Positions 8,468 through 38,208 of a DNA stretch of 38,208 bases are shown here, piece after piece. The stretch comes from a virus. Its lineage: Duplodnaviria > Heunggongvirae > Uroviricota > Caudoviricetes. Location of the stretch: the IMG/VR virus record IMGVR_UViG_3300048838_001248, positions 64,001-102,208 of that record. One strand, written 5' to 3'. The first letter of the stretch is position 1. The number at the start of each line of letters is the position of its first letter. A program made the position numbers and the translations under genes. The notes below the pieces were generated by a model. That model was not told where the DNA came from and did no database searches. It saw only the letters and a program-made list of their open reading frames with translations.

Positions 8468-8473
8468 TCAAAC

Positions 8474-13501: not shown

Positions 13502-13514
13502 ATTATTTTATTTG

Positions 13515-13586
13515 AGGGCATAACGGGATTCGAACCCGTGGACATCGGTTTTAGAGACCGACTGGCGAACCAACCGTCATATGCCC
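13515..13586 (-). tRNA. Amber suppressor tRNA (anticodon CUA)
   Basis: Acceptor GGGCATA/TATGCCC; anticodon arm TCGGT-CTCTAAA-ACCGA; T-arm ACGGG-TTCGAAT-CCCGT; U73; weak D-arm. Confidence 0.85.
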
Positions 13587-25961: not shown

Positions 25962-25995
25962 ATAAAAAACCCGGAACTTTGGATTCCGGGTTCTG
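25962..25995 (-). terminator. Attenuator terminator ahead of tRNA array 1
   Basis: AACCCGGAA-TCCAAAG-TTCCGGGTT then TTTTATTTT; CAGAACCCG is complementary to leader CGGGTTCTG (26045-26053). Confidence 0.85.
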
Positions 25996-26033
25996 TTTTT
26001 ATTCAGTTTTATTTTACTTCATATAATTTCGTA

Positions 26034-26156
26034 TTAATAAAACCCAGAACCCGTGTCCGCAATATTATTTCTGCCAAAATCTGAACAGAATGTACCTTCT
26101 CCAATACGACTGGTTGTCGTTAGACTCGATACTAATATGTAGGCTATTCGTTTCAT
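26034..26156 (-). CDS. Leader peptide 1 (40 aa)
   Basis: MKRIAYILVSSLTTTSRIGEGTFCSDFGRNNIADTGSGFY, between promoter and terminator. Confidence 0.75.
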   Translation of the reverse strand: MKRIAYILVSSLTTTSRIGEGTFCSDFGRNNIADTGSGFY

Positions 26157-26226
26157 CGTTTTATTTTTTACTTATTAATAATAAAATGGCTTCTTCATTT
26201 AAAATCATTTTTATCTAAATACGTTA

Positions 26227-26257
26227 CAAAGGTATAAAATGTTACAACAATTGCAAA
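26227..26257 (-). promoter_or_regulatory. Bacteroidota primary-sigma promoter for leader 1
   Basis: TTTG-N19-TACCTTTG. Confidence 0.8.
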
Positions 26258-26275
26258 CTTTTTTCAAATTATTTT

Positions 26276-34458: not shown

Positions 34459-34493
34459 TATTTAGGTGATTATTTTTAAAAAATTTTAAATTG

Positions 34494-34578
34494 TGAGGGT
34501 AGAGGGATTCGAACCCCCTGAGTATCAAAGTATTGGATTTACAGTCCAACGCCACTCCACCATCGTAGCCGTACCCTC
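34494..34578 (-). tRNA. tRNA-Tyr(GUA)
   Basis: TTGGA-CTGTAAA-TCCAA, long variable arm. Confidence 0.95.
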
Positions 34579-34582
34579 ATTG

Positions 34583-34653
34583 TGCATCCGACAGGGTTCG
34601 AACCTGTGTCACCTGATTAAGAGTCAGGAGCATAACCACTTTGCTACGGATGC
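34583..34653 (-). tRNA. tRNA-Lys(CUU)
   Basis: CCTGA-CTCTTAA-TCAGG. Confidence 0.95.
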
Positions 34654-34717
34654 AAGTTCCTCCTGTCCCTTCGGCAACGGTTATGTTGGTGCACCAACGC
34701 CCCTTTTCAGGAAGATG

Positions 34718-34796
34718 TGGAAATGGTAGGACTCGAACCTACATGCCGAAGCGGGAGTTTTACAGACTCTTGGGTATTCCAGCACCCAACATTTCC
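34718..34796 (-). tRNA. tRNA-Tyr(GUA)
   Basis: GAGT-CTGTAAA-ACTC; variable arm GC-TTCG-GC. Confidence 0.9.
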
Positions 34797-34802
34797 AATT
34801 TG

Positions 34803-34866
34803 TGCCCAAGGCAGGGGTCGAACCTACGACACAATTCCAAGACGGTTTGTGTCTCCAAACAAGGAC
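34803..34866 (-). ncRNA. D-armless tRNA-like RNA
   Basis: T-arm GTAGG-TTCGACC-CCTGC; imperfect acceptor; 7-bp stem GACACAA/TTGTGTC with a 12-nt loop. Confidence 0.6.
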
Positions 34867-34869
34867 ATT

Positions 34870-34955
34870 TGGTGGGATTGGTGGGATTCGAACCCACTCA
34901 GCCGATGGCACTTGTTTTACAGACAAGCCTAACTCTCCAACGTTAGCGCACTCCC
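34870..34955 (-). tRNA. tRNA-Tyr(GUA)
   Basis: CTTGT-CTGTAAA-ACAAG; CCA encoded. Confidence 0.92.
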
Positions 34956-34962
34956 AAATTTG

Positions 34963-35044
34963 TGTATTCGGTGGGATTCGAACCCACGTTGTACTTTCGT
35001 ACCCTGATTAAAAGTCAGGAGCATAACCACTTTGCTACGAATAC
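34963..35044 (-). tRNA. tRNA-Lys(UUU) with long variable arm
   Basis: CCTGA-CTTTTAA-TCAGG; variable arm GTAC-GAAA-GTAC. Confidence 0.9.
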
Positions 35045-35097
35045 GTTTGGATATTTCAGTTATCTTGGATACAGAAAATTCCTAAACTCTACCTCAG

Positions 35098-35168
35098 TGC
35101 ACCCGGTAGGAATCGAACCTACGTCATCTGGTTAAAAGCCAGAGGCATATCCCCTTTGCTACGAGTAC
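35098..35168 (-). tRNA. tRNA-Lys(UUU)
   Basis: TCTGG-CTTTTAA-CCAGA. Confidence 0.95.
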
Positions 35169-35220
35169 ATGTCTACTTTTTTTGGGACATTGGACTAAAA
35201 AGTAGTAAAAACCCTAAAAG

Positions 35221-35293
35221 TGCGCCCGATGGGACTCGAACCCATAACTCCCACATTAAAAGTGTGGTACTCTACCAATTGAGTTACGAGCGC
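35221..35293 (-). tRNA. tRNA-Lys(UUU)
   Basis: CCACA-CTTTTAA-TGTGG. Confidence 0.95.
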
Positions 35294-35309
35294 AATTACA
35301 TATCGACAG

Positions 35310-35396
35310 TGGTTCACCTGACGGGATTCGAACCCGCACACAGGGATTAAGATAGCATGTGCACTTCCCTTGCTCTCTCCATTGAGCCACAAGTGC
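35310..35396 (-). ncRNA. tRNA-like RNA with 19-nt anticodon loop and encoded CCA
   Basis: Normal D- and T-arms; AGGGA-[AGTGCACATGCTATCTTAA]-TCCCT; G1:A72 mismatch. Confidence 0.75.
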
Positions 35397-35612
35397 TGCC
35401 GATATGTCTACTAACATCATTACTCACCTCAACTACTAATTTACTTTACTAATGTGTTTCCAGTTCTCATGCCTGTCAGAACCTTCCTCTGCTCATGTTT
35501 TTTTGGTTGCCCATGCTATCGTTACACTTAAACCTTTCACACACTTTCCAATAACATTTCATATTGGTTTTCACTCTGCTTTCAAATTTTAAATATTTTT
35601 CAAAGAACATAT

Positions 35613-35646
35613 AAAACAAAAAACCCGACTCTTACGAATCGGGTTT
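35613..35646 (-). terminator. Attenuator terminator ahead of the Tyr/Lys tRNA array
   Basis: AAACCCGATTC-GTAA-GAGTCGGGTTT then TTTGTTTT; CCCGATTC is complementary to leader GAATCGGG (35698-35705). Confidence 0.85.
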
Positions 35647-35670
35647 CTGTCTGGTATAAAGTCATTACTT

Positions 35671-35760
35671 TTATATATCACTATTAGACATACCATTCCC
35701 GATTCTCATAAGAGTTTTCTTATAAGTTTTATAAAGATAATATGTGCTAAAAGTTCTCAT
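35671..35760 (-). CDS. Leader peptide 2 (29 aa), Tyr/Lys-rich
   Basis: MRTFSTYYLYKTYKKTLMRIGNGMSNSDI, between promoter and terminator. Confidence 0.8.
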   Translation of the reverse strand: MRTFSTYYLYKTYKKTLMRIGNGMSNSDI

Positions 35761-35789
35761 TGTCTTTTTCTATTAAATTTTTCAGTTTA

Positions 35790-35821
35790 CAAATGTATGA
35801 TATAAATACGAATAAAACAAA
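35790..35821 (-). promoter_or_regulatory. Bacteroidota primary-sigma promoter for leader 2
   Basis: TTTG-N20-TACATTTG, with GTATTTAT in the spacer. Confidence 0.8.
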
Positions 35822-35849
35822 TAAATGTTGCAAAAAGTTTAAATTATTT

Positions 35850-36368
35850 TTATTTCACAAAATCTTCGTAATATTGAATTAATTGGTTTTCGTTTTCAAA
35901 GTATCTTATTTTATCTTCATTAGGACTGTAATTAACCATTTCTCTCCCCTTAATGACCAACCCATCATATCCTAATCTTAACATCTCATCTCTAACATTT
36001 GTCTTTGAATCAAATTCTCTTTTAGCATTAAAATAATCATTAATGCCTTTTTCTCTACCATAATTCACTGCTACTTGTTGTAAATATATTTCAGCATCGT
36101 TCCAACTATTAACAATTTTTGGATGTTTTGGTATTGCGCCCACAACAAAATAGACCTTACCATATTTCCTTGCCAATTCTTTATTTCCTAATGCTGCTGT
36201 ATATAAACCCTGACCAAAAGAAGCCATTCCATTATTTTCTTTACCTACTTCTTGCATACCCCTAAGTGTTACGTTTTGTCGTTTCCACTTTAAGTAATCT
36301 GCACGATTGTAGTCTTCGTTCAGAATATTTGAAATTTCTTCGTTAATTATATTCAGTATTTTGCTCAT
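35850..36368 (-). CDS. IINEE-motif protein, possible ADP-ribosyltransferase-like fold
   Basis: MSKILNIINEEI; FGQGLYT, YGKV, LGYDGLVI, EMVNY. Confidence 0.6.
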   Translation of the reverse strand: MSKILNIINEEISNILNEDYNRADYLKWKRQNVTLRGMQEVGKENNGMASFGQGLYTAALGNKELARKYGKVYFVVGAIPKHPKIVNSWNDAEIYLQQVAVNYGREKGINDYFNAKREFDSKTNVRDEMLRLGYDGLVIKGREMVNYSPNEDKIRYFENENQLIQYYEDFVK

Positions 36369-37198: not shown

Positions 37199-37226
37199 AA
37201 AAAAAGCGGAGAAATTCTCCGCTTTT
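37199..37226 (-). terminator. Intrinsic terminator
   Basis: AAAAGCGGAG-aattt-CTCCGCTTTT followed by a U tract. Confidence 0.85.
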
Positions 37227-38208
37227 AAATGCTATAATCATATCCATCTCGGAAAGGTTTGCTGTAATCCGGTCTAACCAATTTCCAAATTATTTCATCG
37301 TATGGTCTTTTATCGTACAATTTAAAGAGGATTGAACGATATTCGGATTTCAATGCTTCTGCAGCAAATTCCTTACGGTCTGAAACGTTATTTATGTGAT
37401 AAATTCTAACAAACTCTTTCAATGTTTCCCTTTCGATTTCATTATATGCCAACTGTAGCGAGTTGCTAACCCTTTTCAGCCAATCATAGAATTCATCTGG
37501 TACTCTATCAAGCAATTCATCAAAATCATACCCGTTCATCATGTGTTCCCACACAACAACATTTGAAACATTTGTCAATATACCATGAAGTCTAACGTAT
37601 TCAGCAAATTTAACCTTAACCCTAAATCCATTCTTGAATTTAACCACAAATCCCTCACTATTATCTTTTTCAAGTTTTTTAAGGTCAATTAAGTCATTAA
37701 TTTTTACGTTGAATTTTTTAACAACAGTAAAATATTTAGAGTATTGCTCAACCAATTCTTCATAGAGTGCTTCAACACCTGTTTCGGTTACAATTCTTGT
37801 AAGTAAAACAAGTTCCCTTCTATTGCCGTAGTCAACAACAATACGATTTTCAGGATATAGAACCTCAAATAAAAAGGTACATTCAGTATTTAATTTATCA
37901 AGAACAGATGCTTTTAGCATTTTTTGTGCTTCTAACGCTTGTTCTGAAATAAATGAACCCCTTGAAGCCACAATCCATTCCATACGTGGTTTGTAGTAAA
38001 ACACAATAATTAATGAGCCGTCCATTTTTTCGAAAATATCATATTCTTCCGACATATCGATTTCAGATGGGTCATATTCTTCGTAGTTCATGAACTTCTG
38101 AAATGGACGTGCAATTATATTACCCTCAATATCAATAACAAGACCACGACAAGAAAGAGTATATTCATCCCAAACTCTTTTTGACTGAACTCTTGGTGAA
38201 TAATTGAG
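37225..38208 (-). CDS. T4 Rnl1-type RNA ligase, 5' end beyond the window
   Basis: CRGLVID..G..IARPFQKF, EKMDGS, EGFVV, RVKVK; frame stays open to the window edge. Confidence 0.9.
   Translation of the reverse strand, partial: LNYSPRVQSKRVWDEYTLSCRGLVIDIEGNIIARPFQKFMNYEEYDPSEIDMSEEYDIFEKMDGSLIIVFYYKPRMEWIVASRGSFISEQALEAQKMLKASVLDKLNTECTFLFEVLYPENRIVVDYGNRRELVLLTRIVTETGVEALYEELVEQYSKYFTVVKKFNVKINDLIDLKKLEKDNSEGFVVKFKNGFRVKVKFAEYVRLHGILTNVSNVVVWEHMMNGYDFDELLDRVPDEFYDWLKRVSNSLQLAYNEIERETLKEFVRIYHINNVSDRKEFAAEALKSEYRSILFKLYDKRPYDEIIWKLVRPDYSKPFRDGYDYSI

Follow-up and report, generated by a model that had tools for sequence, protein, structure and literature searches.

A predicted leader-peptide attenuator ahead of tyrosine and lysine tRNA genes in a jumbo phage

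Why should a cluster of tyrosine (Tyr) and lysine (Lys) transfer RNA (tRNA) genes in a phage genome lie behind a short open reading frame (ORF) crowded with Tyr and Lys codons, with a transcription terminator standing between the two? The question is raised by a tRNA array in a 38,208-nucleotide stretch of Caudoviricetes DNA (IMG/VR record IMGVR_UViG_3300048838_001248, positions 64,001 to 102,208), which is referred to throughout as the window. An earlier note on this DNA proposed that the ORF and terminator form an attenuator that senses the decoding of Tyr and Lys codons and gates the Tyr/Lys array behind it. Comparison with related loci supports this core reading through conservation, linkage to the tRNA genes and RNA helices. 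From these sequence comparisons we consider it very probable that the Tyr/Lys unit controls a tRNA operon by ribosome-mediated (leader-peptide) transcription attenuation of the trp/his type.

The Tyr/Lys unit and its conservation

The features of the unit are given below in the order in which they would be transcribed. Coordinates are window positions, and all features lie on the minus strand.

35822..35850, minus strand: conserved A/T-rich block (AAAATAATT...TTTGYAAC), from the alignment and motif listing
35790..35821, minus strand: Bacteroidota-type promoter match, with TTTG at -33, a 20-nt spacer and TACATTTG at -7 (TTTG-N20-TAcaTTTG)
35671..35760 (35760->35671), minus strand: leader ORF of 29 codons plus TAA, from the ORF call
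35734..35754, minus strand: 5' strand of helix P1 (anti-antiterminator), codons 3-9 including the first Tyr codons, from minimum free energy (MFE) folds
35716..35742, minus strand: regulatory codons 7-15, Y Y L Y K T Y K K
35705..35726, minus strand: hairpin P2, whose 5' strand is the T-Y-K codons and whose 3' strand abuts the antiterminator and overlaps it by 1-2 nt
35698..35705 (35705->35698), minus strand: antiterminator segment GAAUCGGG, from codon 19 position 2 to codon 21 position 3
35680..35700, minus strand: 3' strand of helix P1, overlapping the GGG of the antiterminator and the codons that follow
35618..35646, minus strand: intrinsic terminator with an 11-bp stem (one G.U), a GUAA loop and U6-G-U4, from the hairpin search
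35397..35617, minus strand: spacer of 221 nt from the U-tract to the first tRNA-like gene, with no match to the promoter pattern
35310..35396, minus strand: tRNA-like gene with a Lys(ctt) body, a 12-nt anticodon-loop insert and an encoded CCA, from Rfam and from ARAGORN with introns allowed
34493..35293, minus strand: seven tRNA genes (ARAGORN), namely Lys(ttt) x3, Tyr(gta) x3 and Lys(ctt) x1

The earlier note had described most of this architecture, and its description holds up well. A Bacteroidota-type promoter match is present ahead of the leader at 35821->35790(-), and would place the transcription start near 35785 with a 5' untranslated region of about 25 nt. The claimed cluster of Tyr and Lys codons within codons 7-15 consists of four TAT codons (7, 8, 10 and 13) together with AAA, AAG and AAA at codons 11, 14 and 15. 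The 11-bp GNRA terminator has the loop GUAA, and its stem pairs 35646->35636 with 35631->35621. The proposed 8-bp pairing of leader codons 19-21 with the terminator 5' arm is also exact: GAAUCGGG is the perfect complement of CCCGAUUC at 35643->35636(-), and the pairing of the two is mutually exclusive with the terminator. An exact 8-nt complement of the arm would be expected by chance about 0.001 times anywhere in a 90-nt ORF. ARAGORN likewise returns the array composition given in the note, with three Tyr(GUA), three Lys(UUU) and one Lys(CUU).

The promoter consensus is that of Bacteroidota. The pattern TTTG-N17-21-TAnnTTTG has eight exact matches in the window against 2.9 expected, all of them on the minus (coding) strand, at 8469, 13069, 15049, 23086, 26227, 28648, 34427 and 35790. 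Two of these head the two predicted attenuators of the window, the second of which is described below, and the eight coding-strand matches support transcription by a Bacteroidota-type host RNA polymerase. The A/T-rich block 5' of the promoter, which may be an UP-like or phage-specific promoter element, is also present at the second attenuator, at 26275. Within the leader, Tyr and Lys make up seven of nine consecutive codons, a concentration with p ~3e-5 given the usage in the long ORFs of the phage, where Lys (9.1%) is the most used amino acid and Tyr accounts for 5.0%.

The window is the final 38 kb of a 102-kb viral contig with a CheckV completeness of about 31%, and belongs to a jumbo phage, since the related contigs are 320-365 kb long. 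The nearest cultured relatives are T4-like phages, with an identity of only 32% for the protein of a neighbouring 758-aa gene (phage collection), and a DNA search of the GenBank phage collection gave tRNA bodies as the sole matches. Among sequencing runs, those listed for the locus were DNA runs with small word shares, and no RNA run was among them. Loci in closer relatives were first fetched by BLAST via two genes that neighbour the leader. In the eight relatives obtained in this way, the stretch of about 240 nt that begins at the conserved upstream block and ends with the U-tract shows 71-76% identity, and a Tyr/Lys array lies directly downstream of the leader region in the same orientation in all eight. 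The array is inverted relative to a 172-aa gene in four of the eight, and the leader unit inverts along with it. We considered whether the terminator is simply the end of this upstream 172-aa gene and rejected the idea: because the unit follows the orientation of the array in the inverted relatives, the hairpin belongs to the array and not to the 172-aa gene.

Pattern scans that specified one Tyr-Lys codon pair, GAAUCGGG and the terminator arm, with no tRNA in the pattern, yielded 35 viral and at least 120 metagenomic loci (loci carry the prefix L below). After removal of duplicates and chance matches, 97 versions that differ at the DNA level remain, with 91 distinct peptides. The contigs come from freshwater-sediment and activated-sludge sites. 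A scan of 185,579 cellular species genomes gave one true copy, and 11 further matches that lie in coding DNA and are due to chance. The true copy (L103; JBAZIW010000001.1, 362,763 nt) is filed as a 'Candidatus Paceibacterota' metagenome-assembled genome, has the leader and an Rnl1 gene of the kind discussed below, and is most likely the genome of a jumbo phage that was binned as a bacterium in error.

The link between leader and array is close across this family. A tRNA array starts within 450 nt downstream in 73 of the 76 versions that have at least 500 nt of downstream sequence. The arrays behind Tyr/Lys leaders contain 122 Lys(ttt), 104 Tyr(gta), 41 Lys(ctt) and 20 other tRNA genes; Tyr(GUA), Lys(UUU) or Lys(CUU) account for 93% of the total. 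The leaders themselves share a consensus core of Y-Y-Y-G-K-K-S-Y-K-K, and each of the 97 versions has 3-5 Tyr residues and, among its first 20 residues, 2-5 Lys. Overall, Lys makes up 16.1% and Tyr 13.8% of leader residues, compared with 9.1% and 5.0% in the phage proteome.

A start codon and an open leader frame of 26-32 codons are found in 97/97 versions, and both other frames are stopped in 97/97. The earlier note had held that a leader ORF that was not conserved would count against its reading; both the ORF and its Tyr/Lys codons are kept in every one of the 97. Insertions and deletions within the ORF comprise whole codons (an extra Met, or one codon lost between the Tyr and Lys runs), and those in the spacer past the leader stop have arbitrary lengths. 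Synonymous variation is seen at codons for Gly (GGA/GGT/GGC), Thr (ACA/ACT), Ser (TCC/TCT), Lys (AAA/AAG) and Gln (CAG/CAA).

These observations bear on whether the leader is translated at all. A translation-independent riboregulator, which might sense uncharged tRNA as a T-box does or bind a protein, could in principle acquire an open frame as a by-product of constraints on its RNA. The strong conservation at the RNA level and the alternative helices described below would suit such an element, and the parallel with T-box riboswitches is a real one: there too the state of a specific tRNA is sensed, the outcome is a choice between terminator and antiterminator, and the genes controlled are related to translation. 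T-boxes, however, bind tRNA directly and need no translation, whereas the Tyr/Lys unit has a conserved open frame and no T-box elements or specifier architecture. Rfam gives no match in 35600-35830 at E <=1, including to the T-box (RF00230), to the trp, his, thr, leu and phe leaders and to Bacteroid-trp (RF01692). The leader ATG is only about 145 nt from the U-tract. The invariant ATG, the single open frame with both others closed, the whole-codon indels and the synonymous variation all argue against a riboregulator of this kind, which we hold to be very improbable, and favour a leader that is translated as an attenuator would require.

The antiterminator is the most rigid part of the leader. 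GAAUCGGG is invariant in the eight versions derived by BLAST and in two from a scan that did not require it, and it is fixed also at the third positions of its ATC and GGG codons while the adjacent codons vary. That second scan left both antiterminator and terminator out of the pattern and was meant to find variant antiterminators. It added only L060 and L072, both with GAAUCGGG, and the remainder of its output was chance coding matches. The terminator is kept in all versions, with hairpin energies of -10 to -19 kcal/mol and termination predicted from sequence. Its 3' arm in most versions is GAGUCGGG, which forms one G.U, or GAUUCGGG, which forms one U.U; a mismatch of this kind, set against a perfect antiterminator, would help the antiterminator to compete. 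L060 carries a compensatory change in the terminator, CCCGGUUC with GACCGGG, and retains the pairing with GAAUCGGG via a U.G wobble.

The array appears to have no other way of being transcribed than through this terminator. The exact promoter pattern lies upstream of 48 of 90 leaders. The first tRNA begins at most 40 nt past the U-tract in 32 of 75 loci, 18 of which have no more than 15 nt between the two, and the promoter pattern is absent from all 42 of the longer U-tract-to-tRNA spacers. Because the short spacers leave so little sequence and the longer ones hold no promoter pattern, transcription of the array must pass through the terminator. The 221-nt spacer of the window has no ORF call and no Rfam match. 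It is kept in L018 (73% identity over the whole 556-nt query), and many relatives are without it; in these the tRNA begins no more than 15 nt past the U-tract.

Competing helices and the predicted switch

The leader region of the window folds better than 200/200 shuffled sequences (z = -4.6). Two helices, P1 and P2, contribute to this structure and each places regulatory codons in one of its strands. Across the family, P1 pairs the F-G codons through the Tyr run and a Gly codon with the AUCG of the antiterminator and about 17 nt beyond. The cells of this alignment are paired in 82% of cases, compared with 42-50% after a shift of the partner by 1-3 nt, and one P1 pair covaries, being A-U in 45 versions and G-C in 33. 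The 5' strand of P2 is formed across the family by the S/T-Y-K codons, and the RNAalifold consensus of 28 sequences consists of P2 stacked on the antiterminator helix. P2 also covaries, with AAG matched to CUU and AAA to UUU almost without exception in the 97 versions. The F-G, I-G-N and M-S-K motifs look conserved in the peptide because they are the strands of P1 at the RNA level.

The terminator is part of the MFE structure in 94/95 naked full-length leaders, and forcing the antiterminator in full leaders costs 13 kcal/mol on average. Termination is the predicted default, since the terminator is present in the MFE of the naked leaders and the antiterminator is the costlier alternative. The effect of a ribosome was modelled by masking a footprint that extends 15 nt from the P site, with the A site on a Tyr or Lys codon and the transcript ended at the terminator 5' arm. 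With a ribosome masked at any Tyr/Lys codon, at least six of the eight antiterminator pairs form in 28/28 leaders. The edge of the footprint falls 0-24 nt before GAAUCGGG for stalls on these codons.

These helices also bear on whether the hairpin terminates transcription at all, or is instead an element for RNA processing or stability, or the 3' end of a small leader transcript, with tRNA levels set elsewhere by promoter strength or processing. Arrays of tRNAs do need much processing, and hairpins at the start of an operon can stabilise transcripts. The hairpin nevertheless has the canonical form of a terminator, with a GC-rich stem of 8-11 bp and six to eight U, like those that follow the neighbouring protein genes, and a role in processing would explain neither the 8-nt antiterminator, which is exact, nor the helices P1 and P2 with their regulatory codons. 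Such an element has, in our view, a very small chance of being the right account, and the hairpin is best read as the terminator of an attenuator.

The proposed switch has four competing segments. Segment 1 would be the Tyr/Lys-codon region, which supplies the 5' strands of P1 and P2. Segment 2, made up of GAAUCGGG and the bases after it, could pair back with segment 1 as P1 or forward with segment 3, the terminator 5' arm CCCGAUUC. Segment 4 would be the terminator 3' arm, followed by the U-tract. With fast decoding of the Tyr and Lys codons, the ribosome would reach the stop codon, P1 and P2 would re-form behind it and hold GAAUCGGG, and segments 3 and 4 would fold so that RNA polymerase halts ahead of the tRNA genes. 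When charged tRNA-Tyr or tRNA-Lys is scarce, a ribosome translating the leader would stall at codons 7-15 and mask segment 1. The freed GAAUCGGG would then pair with the nascent segment 3, the terminator would not form, and the Lys and Tyr tRNA genes would be transcribed. The new tRNAs would relieve the stall and so close a negative feedback loop.

This arrangement closely resembles the E. coli trp attenuator (trpL, RF00513) and the his, phe, leu and thr leaders, which also have a short ORF with clustered regulatory codons. As in the trp attenuator, segments 1 and 2 form an anti-antiterminator, 2 and 3 an antiterminator, and 3 and 4 an intrinsic terminator, and a stall would free segment 2. 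The spacing is also trp-like: the distance from the first base of the last Lys codon to the start of the antiterminator is 13 nt. The Tyr/Lys unit would work like these Rfam leader families and is a member of none of them. It differs from the trp attenuator in controlling tRNA genes and not amino-acid biosynthesis, in being encoded by a phage, and in having no sequence similarity to it. A further difference concerns the leader stop, which in the Tyr/Lys unit follows segment 2, so that the off-state cannot rely on masking of segment 2 by a terminating ribosome.

That last difference is one of several points that weigh against an attenuator. The leader stop codon lies 12-30 nt (mostly 24) past GAAUCGGG, and for this reason a ribosome that terminates there leaves the antiterminator uncovered, unlike in trpL. 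With a ribosome placed at the stop codon, equilibrium folding still gives the antiterminator in 22/28 leaders, and in the partial transcript P1 differs little in energy from the antiterminator (+0.7 +/- 4 kcal/mol). Three further points concern the sequence itself: TAT and AAA are common anyway at the 35% G+C of this phage; GAAUCGGG never varies in the Tyr/Lys family, which leaves its pairing backed by conservation and by the sibling family described below and without covariation of its own; and a non-consensus promoter is possible within the 221-nt spacer of the window. As regards the off-state, the near equality of P1 and antiterminator, together with the fact that a ribosome at the stop codon leaves the antiterminator foldable, means that the decision must be kinetic. 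P1 may re-form behind the ribosome before the 5' arm emerges, or the ribosome may sit between segments 2 and 3.

A probable sibling attenuator with other codons

The window contains a second unit of the same design, with a promoter, leader, antiterminator and terminator followed by a tRNA array.

25966..26257, minus strand: predicted sibling attenuator unit
26257->26227, minus strand: promoter, of the same kind as that of the Tyr/Lys unit
26156->26034, minus strand: leader of 40 codons
26053->26045, minus strand: antiterminator CGGGUUCUG, an exact 9-nt complement of the terminator arm CAGAACCCG
25994->25966, minus strand: terminator, with its 5' arm CAGAACCCG at 25995->25987

The sibling array opens with tRNA-Thr(ggt) 24 nt past the terminator and continues with Cys, Asn, Ile, Ile, Ser and more. 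Its leader in the window is rich in Ser, Ile, Thr, Gly, Asn, Phe and Arg and has one Cys. Relatives hold 26 distinct versions of this sibling family, in which the leader residues comprise 15.5% Ser, 13.5% Ile, 12.1% Thr, 12.1% Gly, 10.6% Asn and 7.2% Phe, the Cys is invariant, and Lys (3.0%) and Tyr (1.1%) are poorly represented. The arrays behind these leaders carry Ile, Ser, Thr, Cys, Phe, Asn and Gly tRNAs. This reciprocal match between leader composition and array content, which is read from the two families side by side, is what argues most strongly for the codons as the sensor.

The sibling family also supplies the antiterminator covariation that is missing in the Tyr/Lys family. Antiterminator and terminator change together as CGAGUCUUU/AAAGACUCG in L087 and as GUGUCGGG/CCCGACAC in L044, and L082 has a 12-bp match. 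In a swap control, the best helix averaged 7.8 bp when sibling members were paired with their own terminator and 6.6 bp with that of another member. The margin is modest because most sibling members share a CCCG core, and for that reason the covariation argument rests on the individual covarying cases. An R-I-G-x-G motif common to the peptides of the two leaders was also considered, but it gives no sign of a connection between the peptides: in the Tyr/Lys family its codons form the antiterminator, and the consensus of the sibling family reads S-R-N-G-N-G.

The second family is of particular value in judging whether the Tyr/Lys ORF might encode a small protein with a function of its own, with a constitutive but leaky terminator, an array transcribed through unregulated readthrough or from a promoter that has escaped recognition, and a Tyr/Lys content that is incidental to an A/T-rich genome. 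The peptide is indeed more conserved than many classical leader peptides (F-G-T, I-G-N and M-S-K), Lys and Tyr are common in the phage, and the window has 221 nt before its first tRNA-like gene. The conserved residues other than Tyr and Lys, however, coincide with the strands of P1, P2 and the antiterminator, and covary as RNA. GAAUCGGG, moreover, complements the terminator arm and does not vary even at synonymous sites; a tRNA starts within 15 nt of the U-tract in 18 loci; and the sibling family repeats the design with other amino acids matched to other tRNAs. We judge a small protein quite improbable for these reasons, and the small protein, the riboregulator and the processing element are unlikely even when taken together. 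An attenuator that reads the codons of its own tRNAs is the reading that we carry forward.

Known systems, possible purpose and neighbouring genes

Attenuation of the decoding apparatus has a precedent in E. coli pheST, which encodes phenylalanyl-tRNA synthetase and is attenuated via the pheM leader according to the reading of its own codons. This is the closest known case, in that attenuation adjusts a component of decoding by the reading of that component's own codons. The product there is a synthetase, whereas the products of the Tyr/Lys unit are the tRNAs themselves, so that the sensor would read its own output. Multivalent attenuators are also known, in ilvGMEDA (Ile/Leu/Val) and in the thr operon (Thr/Ile). 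Like these, one leader here mixes codons, for Tyr and Lys in the unit at hand and for seven or more isotypes in the sibling at 26156(-). In those operons the mix follows the end products of one pathway, whereas here it mirrors the tRNA isotypes encoded downstream.

Textbooks have described leader-peptide attenuation since the 1970s. To our knowledge it has been described only for genes of amino-acid biosynthesis and transport, synthetase genes and resistance genes, and never for tRNA genes. A full-text literature search found no account of attenuation ahead of tRNA genes in phages or in cells, which agrees with the earlier note's statement that attenuation of phage tRNA genes is undescribed. 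As read here, the mechanism is a known one, but the class of product under its control is new, and so is the logic, whereby the sensor would respond to its own output.

If the unit works as its sequence implies, phage tRNAs would be expressed on demand and would not merely be constitutive supplements, with the sensor measuring the very activity that is supplied. This bears on the 50-year-old question of why phages carry tRNAs, for the leader codons would state which shortage the phage expects. The element is also small (about 200 nt) and modular, and could be used to report codon-specific decoding capacity in Bacteroidota-type hosts.

The choice of Tyr and Lys links the unit to recent work in which bacterial defence systems were found to target tRNA-Lys and tRNA-Tyr. 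The tRNA-Tyr and tRNA-Lys of phages T5, T1 and T7 rescue infection from retron-Eco7 PtuAB and PrrC (PMC11555353), and T4 Rnl1 repairs tRNA-Lys cut by PrrC, as summarised in PMC10264068. One gene near the Tyr/Lys unit is of direct interest in this context.

37225..38208, minus strand: RNA ligase gene of the T4 Rnl1 family (Pfam PF09511, 3.6e-19), with its 5' end cut by the window edge

The ligase gene lies upstream of the leader and has its own terminator at 37226->37202, and for that reason it is not under the control of the attenuator. An Rnl1-type ligase is found in 89 of 151 leader loci, listed about 0.1-5 kb from the leader, and is upstream of the leader and co-oriented with it in every coordinate pair compared, including those in inverted blocks. 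The locus thus resembles the T5/T1/T7 and T4 Rnl1 systems in having the same two isotypes, multiple divergent copies and a syntenic Rnl1-family ligase. It differs from T5, where a strong promoter drives tRNA-Tyr (PMC11555353) and no sensing element is described.

The syntenic ligase and the sequence-diverse tRNA copies would fit a counter-defence purpose. It is possible, and we put it forward tentatively, that the unit acts as a damage alarm, in which cutting of tRNA-Lys or tRNA-Tyr by an anticodon nuclease would cause stalling in the leader and release a burst of sequence-diverse replacement tRNAs. Attenuator, array and Rnl1-type ligase might on the same tentative footing form one counter-defence module. 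Were this true, the unit would, with the sibling attenuators, constitute a set of closed-loop sensors of the decoding capacity of the infected cell for each class of codon. A supply of tRNAs matched to demand is at least as likely a purpose, because Lys is the most used amino acid of the phage and because the sibling gates isotypes with no known link to defence.

The genes of the Tyr/Lys array are as follows, in the order of transcription.

35293-35220, minus strand: Lys(ttt), array gene 1 (ARAGORN)
35168-35097, minus strand: Lys(ttt), array gene 2 (ARAGORN)
35044-34962, minus strand: Lys(ttt) with a long variable arm, array gene 3 (ARAGORN)
34955-34870, minus strand: Tyr(gta), array gene 4 (ARAGORN)
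34796-34717, minus strand: Tyr(gta), array gene 5 (ARAGORN)
34653-34582, minus strand: Lys(ctt), array gene 6 (ARAGORN)
34578-34493, minus strand: Tyr(gta), array gene 7 (ARAGORN)

The stems of the Lys and Tyr copies are widely divergent, and all copies retain canonical CU-NNN-AA anticodon loops. The tRNA-Lys(ttt) at 34962-35044 measures 83 nt and stands out among Lys tRNAs by its long variable arm. The earlier note had also listed two tRNA-like RNAs. One of these is confirmed by Rfam at 35313-35396 (tRNA, 42 bits) and is the first gene after the attenuator; the second would lie at about 34797-34869. The 12-nt insert in the anticodon loop of the first could be intron-like, or the gene could be a decoy or pseudogene. 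At the equivalent place in L021 a different call, Leu(cag), is made.

Two features of L046 (IMGVR_UViG_3300001765_000089) are also of note. Its Tyr/Lys array continues into Met, Cys, Asn, Ile and Ser tRNAs behind a single Tyr/Lys leader, and its antiterminator is longer by one base through a matching change before the terminator arm. In the window itself, the far end of the long tRNA-bearing region holds a tRNA with the anticodon CUA at 13514-13586(-), an amber suppressor that ARAGORN labels Pyl.

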